Shown in pieces: positions 3,871 to 54,075 of a DNA stretch of 64,000 nt. The stretch covers positions 124,161 through 188,160 of the forward strand of contig JBAZTS010000001.1 of the NCBI GenBank assembly GCA_041661795.1, in the 5' to 3' direction. Under the pieces are notes generated by a model, which searched no databases, was not told the origin of the DNA, and was given only the letters and a program-made list of their open reading frames with translations. The stretch comes from Minisyncoccota bacterium (GTDB lineage Bacteria; Patescibacteriota; Minisyncoccia; UBA6257; JAGOQP01). How positions within the stretch are numbered: position 1 is the stretch's first letter; each line of letters starts with the position of its first letter. A program made the position numbers and the translations under genes.

Positions 3871-3958
3871 GGGTAGGTAGTCTCGTAGGGGCCGAGGGCG
3901 GTCTGTAAAACCGTTGGCCAATGTGCTCGCGTGAGTTCGACTCTCACCCTACCCACCA
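3871..3958 (+). tRNA. tRNA-Tyr (anticodon GTA), long variable arm, encoded CCA
   Basis: Acceptor GGGTAGG/CCTACCC. Anticodon loop CTGTAAA. Long variable arm as in bacterial tRNA-Tyr. Terminal ACCA. Confidence 0.85.
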
Positions 3959-3960
3959 CA

Positions 3961-4032
3961 GCCACCTTAGCTCAGCGGTAGAGCAACACTTTTGTAAAGT
4001 GAAGGTCCTCGGTTCAAATCCGAGAGGTGGCT
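3961..4032 (+). tRNA. tRNA-Thr (anticodon TGT)
   Basis: Acceptor GCCACCT/AGGTGGC. D-arm TAGCTCAGCGGTAGAGC. Anticodon stem ACACT/AGTGA with loop TTTGTAA. T-arm CTCGGTTCAAATCCGAG. Confidence 0.8.
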
Positions 4033-4081
4033 CAGATAAATCAAAAATAAAATTCCCTTTTTGGAGGGAATTTTATTTTTG

Positions 4082-4155
4082 AGCCAATGGCCGGAATTGA
4101 ACCGGCGACCTACTCCTTACCATGGAGTTGCTCTACCAGCTGAGCTACATTGGCG
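4082..4155 (-). tRNA. tRNA-Thr (anticodon GGT)
   Basis: Reverse complement gives GCCAATGTAGCTCAGCTGGTAGAGCAACTCCATGGTAAGGAGTAGGTCGCCGGTTCAATTCCGGCCATTGGCT. The anticodon loop is ATGGTAA. Confidence 0.8.
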
Positions 4156-5874: not shown

Positions 5875-6567
5875 CTAAATACCTCTCCACTCTTCTATCT
5901 TTTTATGGTCTCCTGACAAAAGAACCTTAGGAACAGACCATTTTCGGCCCGAGGCCGATCCGCCTTGGGCGGACTTTCCATCGGGGCTAAAAACTTCTGG
6001 ACGAGTATAGGTTGGATAACTTCCCTTTAATTCTTCTAAGGATTCTTTTTTCCCAAGAACTCCAGGAATAAATCTGGAAACCGAATCAACTAAGACCATC
6101 GCCGGTATCTCGCCGCCAGAAAGAATAAAATCCCCTATTGATATTTCTTCATCGGCAATATGTTTGGCCACCCTTTCATCAACTCCTTCATATCTGCCAC
6201 AAATTAAAATTAAATTGTTATACTTAGACAATCTTTGAGCAATTTTATTATCAAACTTTTTACCTCTTGTTGAAAACAAAATCACTCTTATCCTAGTAGT
6301 AGAACTTCGTTCACTATGGGACTTCGCTTTGCTCGTTTTTGACTTTATATTTTCCACTGCTTTATATATTGGTCCAACTTTTAAAACCATCCCCGGTCCT
6401 CCCCCAAAAGGACTATCATCTATCTTTTTATGCTTGTCCTTAGCCCATTTTCTGATGTTATATGTTTTTATAGATATCAATTTGTTTTTCTGAGCGCGCC
6501 CTAAAATTGACGATTTAAAATAATCTTCAAAAACATCGGGAATAGCTGAAAGAATGTGAAAAATCAT
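5875..6567 (-). CDS. trmD: tRNA (guanine37-N1)-methyltransferase
   Basis: TrmD hallmarks: N-terminal MIFHILSAIPDVFEDYF and SPFGGGPGMVL. It also contains an in-frame GC-rich palindromic insert at 5945..5974 (see findings). Confidence 0.85.
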   Translation of the reverse strand: MIFHILSAIPDVFEDYFKSSILGRAQKNKLISIKTYNIRKWAKDKHKKIDDSPFGGGPGMVLKVGPIYKAVENIKSKTSKAKSHSERSSTTRIRVILFSTRGKKFDNKIAQRLSKYNNLILICGRYEGVDERVAKHIADEEISIGDFILSGGEIPAMVLVDSVSRFIPGVLGKKESLEELKGSYPTYTRPEVFSPDGKSAQGGSASGRKWSVPKVLLSGDHKKIEEWRGI

Positions 6568-6962: not shown

Positions 6963-7370
6963 TTAAACACTAACCTGTTCCGATGATTCTTGATTTTGTT
7001 CTGGAATAGAATTTTCTACCGGCTGTTCTGCCGGAATTGTCTCTTGGACGGGTTCGGCACTTTGATTTTCAGGAACGACAACTGATGCCTGTTCAATCGG
7101 TTTTTTGGATTTCTTATGCATAGGAATTTTGACTCCCTCTATAGCTCCGGCTGAAATCAAAATATTATGGATAGAACCGCTCGGTTGAGCTCCATTATCT
7201 ATCCATTTTTTTACCTTCTCCTTGGCAACAAGAAACTTATTAGTATGAGGATTATACCATCCCAGGTCTTCAATAAATTTACCTTTCAATTTGGACCCCT
7301 TTTGACTGACTACTATTCTGTAAGAAATTTGTTTTTTCTTGCCTATCGGTTTTAGTTTTATGGTTAACAT
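6963..7370 (-). CDS. rpsP: 30S ribosomal protein S16 with acidic/Pro-rich C-terminal extension
   Basis: N-terminus MLTIKLKPIGKKKQISYRIVV... is a typical S16 fold sequence. Confidence 0.85.
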   Translation of the reverse strand: MLTIKLKPIGKKKQISYRIVVSQKGSKLKGKFIEDLGWYNPHTNKFLVAKEKVKKWIDNGAQPSGSIHNILISAGAIEGVKIPMHKKSKKPIEQASVVVPENQSAEPVQETIPAEQPVENSIPEQNQESSEQVSV

Positions 7371-25354: not shown

Positions 25355-25426
25355 CGGGCCGTAGTGTAATGGTAGCACGAATGCTTTGGGAGTATTTAGT
25401 CCGAGTTCAAATCTCGGCGGCCCGAC
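25355..25426 (+). tRNA. tRNA-Pro (anticodon TGG)
   Basis: Acceptor CGGGCCG/CGGCCCG. Anticodon loop TTTGGGA. T-arm CCGAGTTCAAATCTCGG. Confidence 0.8.
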
Positions 25427-25580
25427 AAAAATAAAGACCCTTTTTTGGGTTTTTATTTTTGTTGTGACCCAAGAGATTTGAATAGAGAATGTGAAATTCT
25501 CGCTTGCCCGCCCGAAGCTTTAGCGAAGGAGGGGCGGCCCGACAAAAATAAAGACCCTTTTTTGGGTTTTTATTTTTGTT
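25413..25580 (+). repeat. ~48-bp direct duplication of the tRNA-Pro 3' end plus its terminator (25413..25460 and 25531..25580), separated by a ~70-bp spacer
   Basis: GGCGGCCCGACAAAAATAAAGACCCTTTTTTGGGTTTTTATTTTTGTTGTG occurs twice, verbatim. Each copy contains the AAAGACCC-TTTTTT-GGGTTTTT terminator hairpin. Confidence 0.7.
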
Positions 25581-25600
25581 GTGGTTGTAAAATTGAATAT

Positions 25601-27035: not shown

Positions 27036-27106
27036 GGGCCTATAGTATAGCGGTAGAACACCTCCATGGCATGGAGGGGGTCGGGGTTCGACTCCCCGTA
27101 GGTCCA
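27036..27106 (+). tRNA. tRNA-Ala (anticodon GGC) with the G3:U70 identity pair
   Basis: Acceptor GGGCCTA/TAGGTCC gives G3:U70. Anticodon stem CCTCC/GGAGG with loop ATGGCAT. T-arm GGGGTTCGACTCCCC. Confidence 0.8.
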
Positions 27107-27265
27107 CAATAAAATATTTAATCAGAGATTAGATATTTTATTTGGGCCACAGGAATCGAATAGAGGTGGGTCGGAGGACGCTTAGTCCTTCGTGTAGGAA
27201 ATTATTCAAAACCGAGGATTTTGAAAGAGTCCGCCCTGGGCGGACGATGTGAGATTCCCCGTAGG
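27107..27265 (+). repeat. structured spacer ending in a second copy of the tRNA-Ala 3' terminus (TCCCCGTAGGTCCAC at 27248..27262); contains a GTCCGCC-CTG-GGCGGAC hairpin
   Basis: A 15-bp direct repeat of the tRNA-Ala 3' end, seen in sequence. The embedded GC-rich hairpin at 27224..27242 resembles the dispersed CCGCC/GGCGG element. Confidence 0.5.
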
Positions 27266-27311
27266 TCCACCCAAAGAAACATTGTCATTATAAATCTTAA
27301 AAGAAAATGAT

Positions 27312-40812: not shown

Positions 40813-40984
40813 AACATTATCGCTCATAGTTCATTTATTATACAAAAATCCACAATAAAAACAACTGGCTGGTTGTTAGTTAAGAGTTGATAATTATTTT
40901 GAAAACTTTTTTAGTTGCCCCAGCCGAAACTTTAGGATCCTCGGCCAACTCCATTCCGCCAAAGGCGGATCGATCAATAATCTT

Positions 40985-42530
<1,546 letters not shown>

Positions 42531-46083: not shown

Positions 46084-46180
46084 ATGAAATCGTTAACCGT
46101 ATACAGTATACAGGTATATAAGATAAACGAAAAAACAAGATAAATCAAGCTATTTATGCATCCGTTATTTTTTATAATTT

Positions 46181-47503
46181 TTAGTATAAAGAATATTTAC
46201 CGTCTAAATATTTTTCTACACTTTCGCGTTCATTGTCAGAAAGAGCTCTGTTATATACTATAATTTCGGCCATTTGTGAATTAGCACTGAGTGTTCCACC
46301 AATTGTATAAATTTCGTCGGTAAGATTAGGAACGGCGTTACAAGAATCACAGGTATAGAAAGACCCAATTGTTCCGTTATATCTCAATATTGGGTCCCTA
46401 TATCTATCTCCACTATTATTTGTCACAGAAAAAATACCGAAATTACTATAATCAAACCCCGTATTTCTCATGACTGAATATCCATCGGTATAACCGATAA
46501 CTCCATCAAAAGGGCCATTCCTATAATAAAGAATCCTTGTTGTTCCTCCTGCTCCAGAAGAAGATCCAAAGGAAAAGAATTTTACCCCATCTTCATACCA
46601 AGTCAAACTTTTTCCAACAAAGAACACTGAAGAAGCTCCAGAGCCACTTACTCCCAAAGCTCCTCCAGCCAAAGAATCATTTGCTCCGTCAAATTGGACT
46701 ACCGACTTTCCATTAACCTGGTTGGTTTTAAAAAGCGGTTTATAACTTACATTACTTTGTATGGCATCATTATTGTTTCCAGATAGATCATCCCAAGTTG
46801 AAATTGGATCATTATTAGAAAGATTTAGGGAGTCGGCTTTAAGCCATAATTTTGGGTCATTAGGTGACAAAAAAAGATTCATGCCAGCTTCAAATCTGAC
46901 GGGATCTCCACCTCCGTCACCAGAAGCAACTTCTTTTATCTTTTTTTCTGATTCCAAAAGAGCGGTCAAAATATATCCACCATTACTATCCACAGCATAA
47001 GCATAAAAATTAGATGTGGATACGGCATTGGTTTCATCTATAGGAAGATCAGATATAAAAGGTCCAACCGATGTTATTCTGGTAAAATCAATTGGAATCC
47101 AACCCGTTCCATCAACATTTTTAAAGGTTGAAGTAGGGGCACATTTGTAAGACCACCCAGAAATTGCGGGAAGTCCTAAGTTTGCGCATGTTGTAGAAGA
47201 ATCGGGAATGGAAATATATAAAGTATTAACGCTACCCAAAGACAAATTACCCAGTCCCGAGTATTTATATTTTTCAACGGCAATTTTAAGGTTGTTTAAA
47301 TCCGATATTCTTCTGGCATCCTTGCTTTCTTGTATAAAAGAAACTGGATTTAAAATAATAACTGTGGCCGCCGAAAGAACGATTATAATACCAACTGTTG
47401 TTAAAAGCTCACCCATAGTGAAGGAACGGGTATCGTATACCGTATACCGTATACCGGGATAGAGCAAATGCTTCTTAAGTTTAGATTTTATAAATTCAAT
47501 CAT
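46181..47503 (-). CDS. prepilin-type N-terminal domain protein with C-terminal LamG domain (mosaic paralog A)
   Basis: Leader MIEFIKSKLKKHLLYPGIRYTVYDTRS, then FTMGELLTTVGIIIVLSAATVII. LamG C-terminus (AEIIVYNRALSDNERESVEKYL). The leader contains a GTATACC x3 heptamer array. Confidence 0.65.
   Translation of the reverse strand: MIEFIKSKLKKHLLYPGIRYTVYDTRSFTMGELLTTVGIIIVLSAATVIILNPVSFIQESKDARRISDLNNLKIAVEKYKYSGLGNLSLGSVNTLYISIPDSSTTCANLGLPAISGWSYKCAPTSTFKNVDGTGWIPIDFTRITSVGPFISDLPIDETNAVSTSNFYAYAVDSNGGYILTALLESEKKIKEVASGDGGGDPVRFEAGMNLFLSPNDPKLWLKADSLNLSNNDPISTWDDLSGNNNDAIQSNVSYKPLFKTNQVNGKSVVQFDGANDSLAGGALGVSGSGASSVFFVGKSLTWYEDGVKFFSFGSSSGAGGTTRILYYRNGPFDGVIGYTDGYSVMRNTGFDYSNFGIFSVTNNSGDRYRDPILRYNGTIGSFYTCDSCNAVPNLTDEIYTIGGTLSANSQMAEIIVYNRALSDNERESVEKYLDGKYSLY
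47430..47456. repeat. tandem heptamer array (GTATACC)x3, 21 nt, in-frame inside the 5' coding region of the pilin-LamG gene
   Basis: GTATC-GTATACC-GTATACC-GTATACC seen directly. It encodes ...PGIRYTVYDTRS... in the leader peptide. Confidence 0.75.
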
Positions 47504-47532: not shown

Positions 47533-48441
47533 TTATACGCCACTTAGTATTTTTATTTTATCCGACACCACTTTTTCCACTTCATGAACTACTTCGGGAA
47601 GTATCTTATAAGGAACGATTTCGTTGGGACGAGATAAAAGAGCCAAATCCAAACCTCTCTTCCAGGCAGTTCTAAGTTCTGTATTGATATGAACAATAGA
47701 TACTCCCGCCAAAACAGCCAGTTTTAATTGTTCGTTAGAAACCCCAGACGCCCCATGTAAAACCATGGGAATATCAATCATGCTTTTTATCTCTTTTATT
47801 CTCTCTACATCAAGATTGGGGTCGGAAGCATCCAAAAACATTCCATGCAGAGTCCCTAGTGCCGGCGCCAGTAAATCTATTCCCGTTTCTTCTATAAATC
47901 TTTTGGCATCTTCGGGTTTAGTCAAATCTTCTTTTTTAACAGAAACACCTTCTGGGATTCTATCTAAAATAACTGACCCGGAACCTATATATCCAAGCTC
48001 CCCTTCCACCAAAACATCGCAATTATTTTTCTGGTTATATTCTTTGACAAAATTAACAACCTCTTTTGTCTCTCTTATGTTTTCTTCAATATTTTCTTTT
48101 CCGGCATCAAACAAAACTGCGTCAAATCCGGCCTCAACCGCTTCTTTTATTTTACCAAAAGAATGCGTATGGTCAGCGTTAAGAAAAATAGGAAAATTTC
48201 CGCCCGAGGCGGATCCGTCTATGATGGAAAATTCTTCTCTTAAACTTTTTATAAGAGCCACAACTTGTTTTATGCCTATAAAATCTCTTTCCCCTTCTGA
48301 AACTCCTATAATAACGGGCTGTTTCAAAGCGTAAGCAGCATCAAAAATTCCCTTAAGAGCCGCCAAATCGGAGATATTAAAATGCCCAACAGCTACATTG
48401 TGTAACTGAGCATCTTTTATTATTTCTCGCAATGTTTGCAT
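47533..48441 (-). CDS. fba: class II fructose-bisphosphate aldolase
   Basis: Class II FBA/TBP aldolase family motifs (NVAVGHFNISD, LNADHTHSF, HGASG). Contains an in-frame GC-rich palindromic insert at 48200..48217. Confidence 0.8.
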   Translation of the reverse strand: MQTLREIIKDAQLHNVAVGHFNISDLAALKGIFDAAYALKQPVIIGVSEGERDFIGIKQVVALIKSLREEFSIIDGSASGGNFPIFLNADHTHSFGKIKEAVEAGFDAVLFDAGKENIEENIRETKEVVNFVKEYNQKNNCDVLVEGELGYIGSGSVILDRIPEGVSVKKEDLTKPEDAKRFIEETGIDLLAPALGTLHGMFLDASDPNLDVERIKEIKSMIDIPMVLHGASGVSNEQLKLAVLAGVSIVHINTELRTAWKRGLDLALLSRPNEIVPYKILPEVVHEVEKVVSDKIKILSGV

Positions 48442-48448
48442 GGACTTA

Positions 48449-49720
48449 TTATATACTAATATATCCTTTAGTGATATTTTCTTTAGTCATTTCTTCCATT
48501 TTCCCCTCACCAAAATAGGAAGAAAATATTTTATTCCATAGTGACTCCTGATGATGATAAAGATACTTAATCATTTCAACCTTTTTAACTAAAGCCATTG
48601 AGGTATCTATAAGATTAAAGCTGACTAGAACTTCTATCCCGGTATCAGTAGAAAAATAATCGCCTATCCAATTCAGCCCCGCCCAGAAAGCAAAATCTCC
48701 ATCCAAGCCATGTTTTTTTGCCAACTCAACAATATTCTTTTCTGCTTTCTCCCAATGCAAGGCCTCCGGGTTAACGTGAGGATAAAAAAGACGCCAGTCG
48801 TTTTCGTCGTCTTTGGCTAAATATCTTTGAGTAACCATCCAATCTCCTTCCTTTATCAGTTCCTTAGAATCAATTACGTCGCCTCTTAAAAGAGAGGAAA
48901 AATCTTCAAAAAAGTTATGATTTATTATCTTTTTTCCGCCCGAGGCGGATCCGCCTATGGCGGAGAATACATCCGAATAAAAAGATATTTCATTAACATA
49001 ATGGAATAAGAGAGCCACGGTTCTTATGAGTTCTCCGGGGATATCCAAGGATATAGGAATGACAAATATTATTCCTAATTCTTTTAAGTGGCTAATGTTG
49101 TGATATTTTTTTTCAACAAATTTCTGAGCCAACTCTTTCCATCTGTCGCTGATAGAAATGATTTCTATTGGCCTTATCTCAAAATCAGCGCTGGACAAAT
49201 CTTGATAATGCCTGATAAAAAACATATTTATCCATTCAGCTCCTTCTACAAATCTAAGGGCGCTGGCTACTTCCCTCCAGTCCTCTTTTTTGAGCATCTC
49301 TGAAACGCTTTGATAACCAAGTGCGGAAAGAATCTTTTTAGGCGGTTCTTTTTCCAATATTTCTATAAACTTGTCTTTTTTTATAAAAAATCCTTCTTTT
49401 TTACCAACCACCAGATTAACCGCCTCAATTATTTTTTGGCATCCACCAACTTCAAAATGACATGGATTTCCTAAAACCGAATTGAGAATTTTATCGTCCT
49501 TGTTTATTTTTCCTATAAGAGCGTCAAATATTTGTTTGGCGCTGGAATCTTTTTTGAGACCAAGAAAGCTTAGTTTTTCCAGCATTATTGCCTCATTGTC
49601 AGAGCAAATTTCATCAAGCATTCTGGCTTTATTGGTAATTTTGCCAAGCTTATCCTGAACGTTTTTTATAACATCTTTATCGGTTCTTAAAATTCTTGCA
49701 ATTTTTTCGTAGGATTCCAT
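48449..49720 (-). CDS. hypothetical protein (423 aa) sandwiched between two pilin-LamG genes
   Basis: No motif recognised. Carries the longest copy of the GC-rich palindromic element (48936..48963), encoding AIGGSASGGK. Confidence 0.5.
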   Translation of the reverse strand: MESYEKIARILRTDKDVIKNVQDKLGKITNKARMLDEICSDNEAIMLEKLSFLGLKKDSSAKQIFDALIGKINKDDKILNSVLGNPCHFEVGGCQKIIEAVNLVVGKKEGFFIKKDKFIEILEKEPPKKILSALGYQSVSEMLKKEDWREVASALRFVEGAEWINMFFIRHYQDLSSADFEIRPIEIISISDRWKELAQKFVEKKYHNISHLKELGIIFVIPISLDIPGELIRTVALLFHYVNEISFYSDVFSAIGGSASGGKKIINHNFFEDFSSLLRGDVIDSKELIKEGDWMVTQRYLAKDDENDWRLFYPHVNPEALHWEKAEKNIVELAKKHGLDGDFAFWAGLNWIGDYFSTDTGIEVLVSFNLIDTSMALVKKVEMIKYLYHHQESLWNKIFSSYFGEGKMEEMTKENITKGYISI

Positions 49721-49729
49721 AAATTTATT

Positions 49730-51055
49730 TTAATATAAAGCGTATTTGTTATTTAAATATTTTTCTACGCTTTGACGTTCTCCTGTGGTTAATGTGTGAT
49801 CATAAAGAATAATTTCAGCAATTTGTACGTTAGAAAAACCTTCCACATTACTAGCTCCTTGCGAAGCTCCGATTAAATATTCGTCGTCGTCAGTATTTGA
49901 AGTACCAGCACAACCATCAGCAGCGTTGTAACTATAAGCCGCTCCGTTGACATAGAGACCGCCAGAACAGTTAGTTCCTCCAGTGGAATCTTGTTGATCA
50001 ATTAATTTAAAAGAAGTTTGATCAAATCCTTCTCCGAATTTAATCCAAGCACCTCCCATCGATCTCCAGAAACTCAACGGAGCAGTTCTAAATCCGAAAT
50101 ATTTAAATTGTCCGTCTGCTCCGGTTGAAGAACCTAAATAAACAACAGCCACAGGATCTCCATACCAACTCAAACTTTTAGCTACTATAAATAAAGTTTG
50201 ACCTCTAGTACCAGAAATTCCTGTTGGTCCTCCAATTAGATAATTATCAATTCCATCAAATTGAACTACCGAATTTCCATTAACTTGATTGGTTTTTAAG
50301 ATCGGCTTATAACTTACATTACTTTGTACGGCATTATTATTATTTCCAGACATATCGTTCCAAGTTGAAATTGGATCATTATCAGAAATCCCCAAGGAAT
50401 CCGCCTTTAACCATAATCTGGGACCATTAGATACTAAGGAGAGGTCAGTTCCTTTTTCAAATCTAATTGGATCTCCACCTCCGTCATTAGAAGCAGCAGA
50501 AATAAATTTATTTGATTCTATAAGAGCTGCTAGTTTCCAAGATCCTCCTGGAATATACGTATAATAAAGTCCATCTGAAGCAGAGTTAGTGGGATCAATA
50601 GGAAGAGATGAAAGTTGAATAACGGATTGAGTAGTAAAATTGACAGGAATCCAACCTGTTCCATCTGTCTTGATAAGGTTAGTTATAGTAACACAATTAT
50701 ATATGTATCCCGTAGGTAAAGAAGGAAGACCAAGATTGTCGCATGTTGCTGAAGAATCAGGGATGGAGACATAGACGGTAAGAGATGTTCCAAAGGAAAG
50801 GGTGGGGTCTATGACTTCTAGGTTCTGGAGGGAGTTATTGAGTAAAGAGAGGTCTTGCATTCTACGAGAGTCCCTAGTTTGAGCAAGATAATCAGCAGGG
50901 TTGAGGACGATAATGACTGCGGTTGTGAGTACGGCAAGAATACCTATAACAACGAGGAGTTCTACAAGGGTGAAGGAACGGGAATTGTATACCGTAGACC
51001 GTATACAGGGATAAGAAAAATACTTCTTTAGTTTGGATTTAATAGATTTATTCAT
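49730..51055 (-). CDS. prepilin-type N-terminal domain protein with C-terminal LamG-like domain (mosaic paralog B)
   Basis: Leader MNKSIKSKLKKYFSYPCIRSTVYNSRS, then FTLVELLVVIGILAVL. The N-terminal third is near-identical to the 62398..63693 protein. The middle segment is near-identical to the 46181..47503 protein. Confidence 0.65.
   Translation of the reverse strand: MNKSIKSKLKKYFSYPCIRSTVYNSRSFTLVELLVVIGILAVLTTAVIIVLNPADYLAQTRDSRRMQDLSLLNNSLQNLEVIDPTLSFGTSLTVYVSIPDSSATCDNLGLPSLPTGYIYNCVTITNLIKTDGTGWIPVNFTTQSVIQLSSLPIDPTNSASDGLYYTYIPGGSWKLAALIESNKFISAASNDGGGDPIRFEKGTDLSLVSNGPRLWLKADSLGISDNDPISTWNDMSGNNNNAVQSNVSYKPILKTNQVNGNSVVQFDGIDNYLIGGPTGISGTRGQTLFIVAKSLSWYGDPVAVVYLGSSTGADGQFKYFGFRTAPLSFWRSMGGAWIKFGEGFDQTSFKLIDQQDSTGGTNCSGGLYVNGAAYSYNAADGCAGTSNTDDDEYLIGASQGASNVEGFSNVQIAEIILYDHTLTTGERQSVEKYLNNKYALY
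50987..51007. repeat. degenerate heptamer array GTATACC-GTAGACC-GTATACA in the 5' coding region of pilin-LamG paralog B
   Basis: Seen in sequence. It encodes ...PCIRSTVYN.... Further GTATAC motifs lie in the promoter region 51061..51090. Confidence 0.65.
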
Positions 51056-52092: not shown

Positions 52093-54075
52093 TTATTTTA
52101 ATCTGTTTTCATAATACCACTCAAACACTTTCTTGGCTACCGGAACAGCATTTAAACTACCCTCCTTGGCGTCTTCTATCAGCACTAAGACAGCTATTTG
52201 TTGAGGTATCGCAGATTCACCCTGATCAAGACGTGGATTGTCGCCGATATTCTCATCTGCGCTTATCTGCGTTGTTTCCTTTGGAAGCAAGTTGTAGCCA
52301 ACAAAAAATGCATTTACTTTGGCATTATTTTCTATCTGAGCACTTCCGGTTTTGGCGGCAATTTTTAAAGGAATACCATTCAATATATGAGAGGTTCCAT
52401 ATTCTTTTTCTACTCCATCCATCATTCCTTTTTCAACTTCGGAAAAATTATTAACATCAGAAAACTCCATCAAATCATAAGACGGATTTTTAGTAAAAAC
52501 AGATTCTTGTAAATTATTTTTAATTTCCTTTACTAAATAAGGATTGAAAAGTTTCCCCTTAGAATTAATGGCTGATATATATCTTAAAAGAGCTAACGGG
52601 CTAATCATTAAATCTCCCTGACCTATGGAAACGTTATAAGTATCTCCTATTCTCCAAATTTGACCCGTTCTTTCCTCTTTTTTCTCCGGATCTGGTAGGA
52701 CCCCAACCGATTCGCCGATAATATCTATACCTGTCTTTTTATCTAATAAAAACTTTTTCCAATAATCTATTAACCTATAAACCCCAAGACCCTTTAGATT
52801 TTCTCCGCCCAAGGCGGATCCGCCTTTGGAGGAAAATCCTCCACCAACTTCGTAGAAGTAAACATTGCTGGAACGAGCCAGGGCTGAATACAAATTAACC
52901 CAGCCATGTGCTTTCCAATCAACAAATCTTGAGGGTTTGTCTGGAAAATAAGGATTGGGAATTTCTATGTAACCGGCAGAAAAAATCGAATAAAAAGGAT
53001 CAACTACTTTTTCTTCTAAAGCCCCAAAAGCCACCAACGGCTTGATGGTAGACCCCGGGCTGTATATTCCAGAAATTATTCTATTAAATGTCGGCCTGAG
53101 AGAATCGGAAAAAAGAGAGGATGACAAGTTATTATTGTCAAAACTTGGCAAACTCACCATAGAAAGAATTTCACCGTTTGATGGATCCATAATAAGCCCA
53201 GCTCCTGATTTTCTGCCCAAAAAATTAAGTTGATTTTTAAGTTCCGTATAAAAGAACTTTTGTAAATCAGCATCTAAAGTAGTGGTCAAACTACTGCCCG
53301 AAACAGGATCGGAAAATTTTTTCTCTTCAATAGTATTTCCCAAAGCGTCTTTGAAAACCACCGTGCTTCCTTTTTTACCTCTAATATATTTATCGTAATA
53401 TGCCTCTAAACCACTTTTGCCTATTTCATCATTTAAATCAAAACTTTCGTCAGTGTCTATATCATTACGACTCACTAGTCCTACATAACCTAATACGTGT
53501 GAAAAAACCTCTCCGTCAATATATCTCCTGGAGAAATTGTTTTCTACCAGAAGAAAATCAAAATTGAGATTCTTTATAGCCAAGCTCTGTTCCAAAGATA
53601 TATTTTTTAAAAGAGTAAGATGCGATTGTCTCTCTAAATTAGCCGATAGAATTGAATCTTTTATGGTCTGTTTATCAAAAGGAACTATTATGTTTATTTT
53701 TTCTAAAAGATTATCCAATTCATCTCTTCTTTTTAGAAGTTGAGAAAGAGATAAGACCGCGTCAAAACTGGGATTATTGGCAACCAAAGATGTCCCATAT
53801 CTGTCATAGATAACTCCCCTTGGAGCTGTTAAAATAATTTCTTGTCCGGCATTGGCCAAAGCTCTAATTTTATAAAAATCATCACCAAATCCAATGTAAA
53901 TAAATCTAAAAGCAAACAACAGAATAACCGCAAAGATTACGAGCCCAACAATTTTGAACACAGAAAAAGAGACGGGTTTTTCCACGGCTTCTAAACCTTG
54001 GGAAAAATCGTCTAAAATCGCATCCTCTAAAAAAATCTCTTTTCTAGCCATAGTCCTAAGAAAAAGAACAAACAA
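52093..54075 (-). CDS. mrdA: penicillin-binding protein 2 (elongasome transpeptidase)
   Basis: N-terminal TM anchor. Transpeptidase motifs STIKP (SxxK), SSN-like, and KTGSA (KTG). Directly downstream of mreBCD. Contains an in-frame palindromic insert at 52805..52832 encoding KGGSALGGE. Confidence 0.8.
   Translation of the reverse strand: MFVLFLRTMARKEIFLEDAILDDFSQGLEAVEKPVSFSVFKIVGLVIFAVILLFAFRFIYIGFGDDFYKIRALANAGQEIILTAPRGVIYDRYGTSLVANNPSFDAVLSLSQLLKRRDELDNLLEKINIIVPFDKQTIKDSILSANLERQSHLTLLKNISLEQSLAIKNLNFDFLLVENNFSRRYIDGEVFSHVLGYVGLVSRNDIDTDESFDLNDEIGKSGLEAYYDKYIRGKKGSTVVFKDALGNTIEEKKFSDPVSGSSLTTTLDADLQKFFYTELKNQLNFLGRKSGAGLIMDPSNGEILSMVSLPSFDNNNLSSSLFSDSLRPTFNRIISGIYSPGSTIKPLVAFGALEEKVVDPFYSIFSAGYIEIPNPYFPDKPSRFVDWKAHGWVNLYSALARSSNVYFYEVGGGFSSKGGSALGGENLKGLGVYRLIDYWKKFLLDKKTGIDIIGESVGVLPDPEKKEERTGQIWRIGDTYNVSIGQGDLMISPLALLRYISAINSKGKLFNPYLVKEIKNNLQESVFTKNPSYDLMEFSDVNNFSEVEKGMMDGVEKEYGTSHILNGIPLKIAAKTGSAQIENNAKVNAFFVGYNLLPKETTQISADENIGDNPRLDQGESAIPQQIAVLVLIEDAKEGSLNAVPVAKKVFEWYYENRLK

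Follow-up and report, generated by a model that had tools for sequence, protein, structure and literature searches.

A 30-nt double hairpin in frame in trmD of a Candidatus Paceibacterota genome is probably a copy of a very small mobile element

Several families of very small repeated DNA offer points of comparison for the 30-nt double-hairpin element described here, which lies in frame in trmD on a 64,000-nt stretch of DNA (the window; 36.8% GC) from a metagenome-assembled genome (MAG) of Candidatus Paceibacterota, in the candidate phyla radiation (CPR). The Rickettsia palindromic elements (RPEs), which Ogata and colleagues reportedly described in 2000, are said to be palindromic selfish DNA of ~100–150 bp, confined to Rickettsia, that lies in frame in many housekeeping genes, places its peptide at the protein surface, and encodes no transposase. 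The small dispersed repeats (SDRs) of cyanobacteria, attributed to Elhai and colleagues (2008), are reportedly mobile, hairpin-forming repeats of ~20–30 nt without a known transposase that occur in genes and in one another. The GC clusters of fungal mitochondria, with double-hairpin and 'byp' elements, are tens of nucleotides long and have spread in AT-rich genomes, protein-coding genes included. Judged by analogy, the element at trmD behaves like members of these three families, and its architecture is REPIN-like.

Repetitive extragenic palindromic sequences (REPs) and REPINs are small GC-rich imperfect palindromes; what replicates is a pair of such units in inverted arrangement (PMC3116915, Bertels and Rainey 2011). 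A REPIN folds either as a long hairpin or as a two-hairpin 'clover', the latter being the proposed substrate of a dimeric enzyme (PMC3116915). REPs are almost wholly extragenic (14 of 1,067 16-mer occurrences overlap genes in SBW25), are specific to a lineage, bear a conserved 5' tetranucleotide, and cluster beside a gene for a REP-associated tyrosine transposase (RAYT) (PMC3116915). [quoted passage not shown]

The element occupies positions 5944–5973 (minus strand) of the window, as delimited by pattern matching and translation, and lies within an intact trmD (5875–6567, minus strand; 230 aa) that encodes the tRNA m1G37 methyltransferase. Two 15-nt hairpins abut to form it; each pairs 6 bp in a GC-rich stem and leaves a 3-nt loop. 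On the window strand the element reads TCGGCC-CGA-GGCCGA (5944–5958), then TCCGCC-TTG-GGCGGA (5959–5973); ~77% of its bases are G or C (23 of 30, counted by eye). The second unit has the consensus stem TCCGCC/GGCGGA, from which the variant stem of the first differs by a compensatory C>G/G>C change. The coding strand, TCC GCC CAA GGC GGA TCG GCC TCG GGC CGA, specifies SAQGGSASGR, and residues 197–210 of TrmD, encoded at the element, are GKSAQGGSASGRKW. The original prediction had placed a GC-rich palindromic copy at 5945–5974, within the TrmD coding frame. Exact matching and translation bear out the frame, and the quoted 30-mer does lie exactly there, but the natural boundaries of the palindrome (T...A) fall one base to the left. 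We consider that this sequence is probably a copy of a very small, non-autonomous mobile element defined by its structure, with selection keeping the copies that fall in harmless frames and loops.

Three further double copies are present in the window, all on the minus strand: in fba, which encodes the class II fructose-bisphosphate aldolase (48199–48228, SIIDGSASGG), in a gene for a 423-aa hypothetical protein (48935–48964, a perfect-consensus copy, SAIGGSASGG), and in PBP2/MrdA (52804–52833, SSKGGSALGG). These had been assigned to the same family as the trmD copy, and rightly so, as all four share the two-hairpin consensus and read in the S-A-x-G-G-S-A-x-G-G frame. A degenerate 30-nt pattern allowing up to 3 mismatches gave 7 strand matches, at these 4 places, against 0.00 expected from 100 dinucleotide-preserving shuffles; the 15-nt half pattern gave 11 window matches against 0.45 expected. 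The fba copy corresponds to an 8-aa gap in the alignment with solved aldolases, the PBP2 copy falls inside a stretch of 16 aa that the solved MrdA structure lacks, and the 423-aa protein has a net gain of 8 aa over homologs at 61% identity or less.

Evidence for movement comes from fba. The locus L128 (JGI 3300014208) is syntenic with 45–59 kb of the window at 88–92% nucleotide identity, shares the PBP2 and 423-aa copies, and lacks the one in fba. Around that junction (91.6% nucleotide identity) the window has GAAGAATTT[30 nt]AATTTTCC, and in L128 GAAGAATTC is joined directly to AATTTTCC; with the element spelled out, GAAGAATTT[TCCATCATAGACGGATCCGCCTCGGGCGGA]AATTTTCCT stands against an empty site where GAAGAATTC meets AATTTTCCT. 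Filled and empty sites differ by exactly 30 nt, with no duplicated bases. Since L128 has the T-rich and A-rich flanks at its empty site, the TTT/AAA bases are target and not element, which refutes the alternative delimitation that would include them. The site is empty in 110 of 120 listed orthologs, including relatives at 93% and 69% identity, and by sequence comparison the fba copy is a lineage-specific 30-nt insertion. At the same nucleotide, the consensus occurs without mismatch in a locus of 60% identity (L129), and another locus (L130) has a 21-nt derivative with a 9-nt internal deletion. Copies at the same nucleotide imply that the element has either inserted there independently more than once, the site being preferred, or been excised precisely on repeated occasions, and both are behaviours of mobile DNA. 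A recent empty site was also sought for the 423-aa and PBP2 copies and rejected, as the 93%-identical relative has both.

The structure of the element is conserved as two hairpins. We compared 19 copies, namely the perfect-consensus copy at 48935 and 18 divergent copies picked by sequence similarity alone. The two-hairpin fold showed 21 double-sided compensatory changes against 4.5 ± 1.6 in shuffles (0 of 500), with 93% of cells paired, a count to be read with the caveat that templated mutation can correct quasi-palindromes without selection. Sliding the stem partners removed the covariation signal. The two hairpins of one copy may differ in stem, as in TCAGCC/GGCTGA with CCAGCC/GGCTGG. RNA folding of consensus copies also permits a single long hairpin, to which covariation gives no support, its score being no better than that of shuffles. 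The fold that covariation supports is that of the REPIN 'clover' (PMC3116915). The element further resembles a REPIN in being a GC-rich inverted doublet, in which the second loop (TYY) is the reverse-complement type of the first (RRA); loops of the types RRA and then TYY occur in ~95% of 124 copies, and 94% of copies have A at the third loop position. Unlike REPs, it has no GTAG-type head and no spacer between units, and its flank logo shows T-rich/A-rich target bases only.

The trmD copy is old. Its nearest TrmD relatives (P0003, 70% identity; L121 and L122) have TCTGCC CGA GGCAGA / TCGGCC CTG GGCCGA at the same codon position, with both hairpins intact and one of them newly altered in a compensatory manner (C>T with G>A). 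Because the copies of the window and of L121/L122 share this position and the rare stem TCGGCC/GGCCGA, the insertion is most simply ancestral to both lineages. Between the window and the 70%-identity relative, third codon positions are identical in 9 of the 10 element codons, against a fraction of 0.45 over the other 214 codons, and 3 of the 10 element residues differ (Q/R, G/R, S/L). This comparison points to constraint or homogenisation acting on the nucleic acid of the trmD copy and not on its peptide. In another ortholog (L123, P0004) a copy with one broken hairpin lies five codons upstream, directly following EVF, and a different hairpin family occupies the same TrmD loop in other Paceibacterota (TCATTCCCGCGCAAGCGGGAATCCAG in L124 and TCATCCCGACGAAAGTCGGGATCCAGG in L125). 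The loop is, in these genomes, a repeatedly used permissive site.

The window TrmD is identical to an NCBI/JGI protein entry on a 230-kb contig. It matches 27 solved TrmD sequences, down to E = 1e-46, and keeps the invariant residues of the family; PF01746 is annotated on all 120 listed homologs, and the AlphaFold2 model superposes on TrmD crystal structures with a TM of ~0.69. The solved proteins align on both sides of the insert and leave a gap of 12–14 residues between YTRPEV(L/F)xG and VPxVLLSG(D/N/H)H. Across the 120 Paceibacterota orthologs listed, loop length at this site ranges from almost nothing (ESF-QGWKVP) to ~35 residues, and SAxGG-like residues occur only in P0002/P0003 and P0004, where they are copies of the same element at the DNA level. 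The peptide is an insertion and not native TrmD sequence, as had been proposed: it is absent from the solved structures and from most of the Paceibacterota orthologs aligned, and the TrmD alignments yielded no ortholog from unrelated bacteria with the same residues. In the model, residues 194–209 are coil between the one-residue bridge of F193 and W210, pLDDT drops below 50 at residues 201–204, and the remainder of the protein is well predicted. The coil, the low pLDDT, and the superposition support the surface-loop location of the original prediction. Its further pointer to the C-terminal domain linker fails, because the insert lies ~20 residues downstream of the GVLGKKESLEE segment, which we take to be the flexible interdomain linker. 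The insert therefore lengthens a turn within the C-terminal domain, outside the linker. We infer that the TrmD peptide is a passenger and not an adaptation; considered alone, the trmD copy is a modest finding, an old tolerated passenger in a variable loop.

Other features of this protein and loop were noted in passing. TrmD residues ~77–92 (window 6290–6340) form a second lineage-variable insertion, Lys/Ser-rich (KSKTSKAKSHSERSSTTR), with an 11-aa gap relative to solved structures, low model confidence, and no visible GC hairpin. The protein terminates directly after EEWR, without the C-terminal helices of E. coli TrmD. The second small-hairpin family of the TrmD loop (L124 3001–3699; L125 3001–3726) encodes the peptides FPRKRES or SSRRKSGS and has the layout GTCAT, GC stem, GNRA-like loop, stem, and (A)TCC/CCAG. 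The same family flanks small GIY-YIG genes in inverted orientation at L002 4700–5100 and L116 5500–5950, where it resembles the ends of a tiny transposon.

A scan with the exact pattern, using one reference genome per species, returned at least 120 loci, and all of those listed are MAGs. The listed taxa are Patescibacteria of numerous classes, Omnitrophota, Kiritimatiellae, Lentisphaeria, Planctomycetia, Verrucomicrobiota, Ignavibacteria, Margulisiibacteriota, and further groups; the matches listed range in locus GC from 0.30 to 0.70, and two high-GC Chloroflexota matches may be due to chance. Among 126 copies in the listed loci, 105 are in open reading frames (ORFs) of at least 90 aa and 75 in ORFs of at least 200 aa, and about one third lie outside long ORFs. 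Because the palindrome reads alike on both strands, the SAxGGSAxGG frame is expected in 1/3 of cases; it was found for 81 of the 105 in-ORF copies and, counting only ORFs of at least 200 aa, for 64 of 75. Listed hosts include CysRS, TsaD, FolD, a DHH/RecJ-like protein, Asp/AsnRS, PheT, DnaE, RpoB, and a release factor. Pairwise comparison of homologs gave clean 10-residue gaps between filled and empty members, and two orthologous class II synthetases have the element at different sites. The flanks show T at positions -3 to -1 (0.59, 0.82, 0.61) and, symmetrically, A at +1 to +3. In a Kiritimatiellae MAG (L005 4570–4765 and 6390–6585), a double hairpin lies near one end of a ~195-nt repeat with 97% identical copies; the repeat holds further hairpin modules and so looks like a mosaic element, and L050 (reverse, ~7180–7370) was grouped with it.

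Like the RPEs, the family lies in frame in many unrelated genes with one frame favoured (64 of 75 long-ORF copies). Unlike them, it measures 30 nt, forms two triloop hairpins, and spans several phyla, with the present host in Candidatus Paceibacterota; no sequence similarity was seen or expected. The SDRs are equally small and hairpin-forming and also enter genes, but they differ in sequence and are not known outside cyanobacteria. Mitochondrial GC clusters and 'byp' elements differ in that the present hosts are bacteria of 30–63% GC and that the frame bias indicates translation, some organellar elements being bypassed. REPs contrast with the family in location, as all 4 window copies and 75 of the 126 listed copies lie in ORFs of at least 200 aa. 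MITEs contrast in size (30 nt here), in the clean fba pair of filled and empty sites without duplication, and in the parent element, none having been found in the loci examined.

The mechanism that we propose takes the two-hairpin structure, not coding, as the identity of the element. New copies arise as exact 30-nt gains without target-site duplication, preferring T-rich/A-rich (TTT/AAA-like) junctions, and one site is open to independent insertions in different lineages. Within genes, survivors are overwhelmingly those in the S-A-x-G-G-S-A-x-G-G frame, on either strand, in loops tolerating 10 small flexible residues. The trmD copy is one such survivor, predating the split from the 70%-identity relatives, in which compensatory changes kept both hairpins while residues drifted. 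Movement would occur in trans, through an enzyme recognising the two hairpins in extruded or single-stranded DNA, by analogy with REPINs and the ends of IS200/IS605, for which dimeric HUH/Y1 transposases are the proposed agents; neither insertion nor precise excision would then leave a footprint.

More tentatively, and with somewhat less than even confidence, we suggest that the copies make up a mobile DNA family of 30-nt double hairpins, pan-phylum in extent and so far undescribed. Its distribution would imply an unrecognised, horizontally shared mobilisation machinery specific for hairpins, with small GIY-YIG nuclease genes as a lead. Literature searches by sequence, peptide, and topic, within an incomplete coverage of the literature, found no description of such a family. 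If real, it would rank among the smallest bacterial mobile DNAs, with hosts in Patescibacteria, Omnitrophota, bacteria of the Planctomycetes–Verrucomicrobia–Chlamydiae (PVC) group, and Ignavibacteria.

Small GIY-YIG genes occur in 7 of the 120 listed loci, as well as in L121 and L122, and are sometimes flanked by units (L121, L136); a role as partner looked suggestive in L121, L136, L026, and L002. In 200 kb of independently fetched GIY-YIG loci, the perfect double triloop hairpins number 5 and are all of this family, and 4 of the 5 lie within 60 nt of the GIY-YIG gene; ~60 of 80 GIY-YIG genes have no such hairpins. Reading the DNA showed that the element and the GIY-YIG genes both sit in tRNA-Ser pseudo-gene copies. 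As an autonomous partner, GIY-YIG is doubtful because most of the 80 genes lack flanking hairpins and the shared tRNA-Ser habitat explains the co-occurrence at least partly; the link may reflect habitat rather than mechanism. In the tRNA-Ser/GIY-YIG clusters (L026 7376–7835; L136 730–1205; L174 1330–1500; L200 285–700), small GIY-YIG ORFs begin directly after the anticodon loop of truncated tRNA-Ser copies adjoining an intact tRNA-Ser. Within these pseudo-tRNAs, the insertion point of the element is the D-loop, the D/anticodon junction, or the anticodon loop.

Several observations weigh against a mobile element. An E. coli RayT query found no RayT/Y1 homolog in ~1 Mb of locus sequence, which gives no support to RAYT as the mobiliser. 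When 2,456 ORFs from 120 loci were clustered all against all, no gene family recurred beside copies (maximum 4 loci); the recurrent neighbours are common epimerases and glycosyltransferases, and this absence is consistent with a non-autonomous element. No IS with the ends of the element was found among the 120 loci examined. Only 2 matches occur among 2.9 million viral contigs (IMG/VR), so a phage vector was rejected and no vector for cross-phylum spread is apparent. Taxonomic labels of MAGs, such as those of 'Gammaproteobacteria' third-party annotation (TPA) bins, may be unreliable, and the number of loci is a lower bound (at least 120). A precise deletion in the L128 lineage is a formal alternative for the fba polymorphism, although insertion is the more parsimonious over the 120 orthologs. 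In a test for target-site duplication at all offsets, a subset of copies showed a weak 7-nt in-register direct-repeat signal (z = 5.8), which does not agree with the fba junction, where nothing is duplicated; target-site duplication was rejected because the signal is limited to this weak subset and absent at the clean junction. Finally, hairpins kept in an old copy are not predicted for plain junk and could reflect host function or templated self-correction.

Host function would mean a cis-element with a nucleic-acid role, such as an mRNA stabiliser, a translation pacer, or a protein-bound DNA structure, that is kept because it is useful. We regard this as unlikely, even if compensatory changes do keep the hairpins, the old trmD copy keeps its third codon positions as its amino acids change, and a T-run before and an A-run after form the reverse of a terminator layout on both strands. 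The copies stand at unrelated positions of unrelated genes, differ in presence between 92%-identical genomes, lie outside long ORFs in about one third of listed cases, and are sparse (4 in 64 kb), and templated mutation without selection can account for compensation within a palindrome. Rfam also gave no support for a known RNA family, with nothing near the gathering score around the consensus copy and only rRNA and tRNAs in a window-wide gathering scan. Very unlikely is a DNA uptake or recognition signal, akin to uptake signal sequences (USS) or DNA uptake sequences (DUS), enriched by biased uptake and recombination in organisms that depend on imported DNA. ComEC-type competence genes adjoin trmD in L124 and L125, and uptake sequences, too, lie in coding regions with certain frames preferred, often paired in inverted orientation. 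Yet the copies arise as 30-nt insertions and not by point substitution, at about one per 16 kb they are far sparser than USS/DUS, which number roughly one per kb, and the same sequence recurs across phyla, where uptake signals are lineage-specific.

The 30 nt might also go untranslated, through ribosome skipping or removal from the mRNA, as with the 'byp' elements of Magnusiomyces mitochondria; GC-rich hairpins are also inserted in coding genes of other genomes, and the element resembles them. Bypassing would remove any need for frame bias and stop avoidance, so the bias found in long ORFs (64 of 75) and the placement of TGA/TAG-loop copies in ORFs of the other strand or another frame make this equally improbable. 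Selection for the Ser/Ala/Gly peptide as a convergent flexible linker, with the palindrome as a by-product of codon choice, fits a peptide that is small, flexible, and always placed in loops. It is already contradicted by the trmD copy, whose nucleotides are more conserved than its residues, and it is highly improbable given that the RRA/TYY nucleotide rule sets the loop codons (giving Phe in 47 of 124 copies), that copies also occur in the two other frames and in non-coding DNA, and that synonymous codons are unused. We also considered a low-complexity match by chance and an artefact of assembly or cloning: the element has a BamHI site, resembles GGSGG-type synthetic linkers, and contains a core string, GGCGGATCCGCC, found in the literature only in primers and constructs. 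Either is scarcely credible when zero matches are expected by chance and the assemblies that contain the element derive from numerous studies, assemblers, and long-read projects; in conserved genes it keeps the reading frame, and related genomes have it by inheritance.

If a small mobile element is indeed the explanation, the interest lies in the family-level picture and not in trmD alone. A tiny selfish DNA would be reshaping surface loops of essential proteins (TrmD, RpoB, DnaE, aminoacyl-tRNA synthetases) across uncultivated bacteria, in parallel with RPEs and mitochondrial GC clusters but far smaller and spanning phyla. The copies flag permissive insertion sites in essential enzymes and could mark horizontal exchange among co-occurring groundwater lineages. 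They also pose a mechanistic problem, that of recognising two 6-bp triloop hairpins and pasting 30 nt at T/A junctions footprint-free. For annotation, such inserts inflate apparent protein divergence in CPR genomes and make spurious low-complexity 'motifs' in alignments.

The window also has two single hairpin units. One, TCCGCCCTGGGCGGA (27230–27244), abuts a partial tRNA 3'-end duplicate: the 3' end of the tRNA at 27036–27107 recurs at 27239–27270 (78% identity), and this duplication looks att-type or like a junkyard, comparable to the tRNA-Ser clusters of L026, L136, L174, and L200. The other, TCCGCCAAAGGCGGA (40955–40969), lies ~15 nt past the 3' end of the 16S rRNA gene (40984–42530, minus strand), whose 3' tail (40955–41060 region) is GTAACAAGGCACGTGTAGCGGAAGCTGTGCGTGAAACAATTAAAC, with no visible GGATCACCTCCTT anti-Shine-Dalgarno. 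In the 25 nt 5' of 47 long ORFs we found AT-rich words only, GGAG/GAGG not being enriched, and from these sequences the organism's translation may start without Shine-Dalgarno pairing.

Repeats and length changes of other kinds are present too. A perfect 51-nt direct repeat directly past tRNA-Pro (25416–25466 and 25533–25583) holds in each copy a long AT-rich palindrome (ACAAAAATAAAGACCC...GGGTTTTTATTTTTGT). A GTATAC-rich repeat family (ATCGTATACCGTATACCGTATAC...) occurs at 46089–46118, 47432–47461, and 50984–51013, near paralogous pilin-like genes, and two of its copies correspond to 24–25-nt indels relative to L128. Conversely, L128 has a 222-nt insertion between mreB and mreC (3909–4131), without counterpart at window ~55173, that contains a long inverted repeat (CCCCCTCACTCATTG...CAATGAGTGAGGGGG) and is possibly another MITE or a small RNA. 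The C-terminal region of PBP2 (52209–52256) shows a 48-nt in-frame indel relative to L128, in which the extra window sequence is DENIGDNPRLDQGESA with no hairpin element; loop length has changed here in another way between close relatives.

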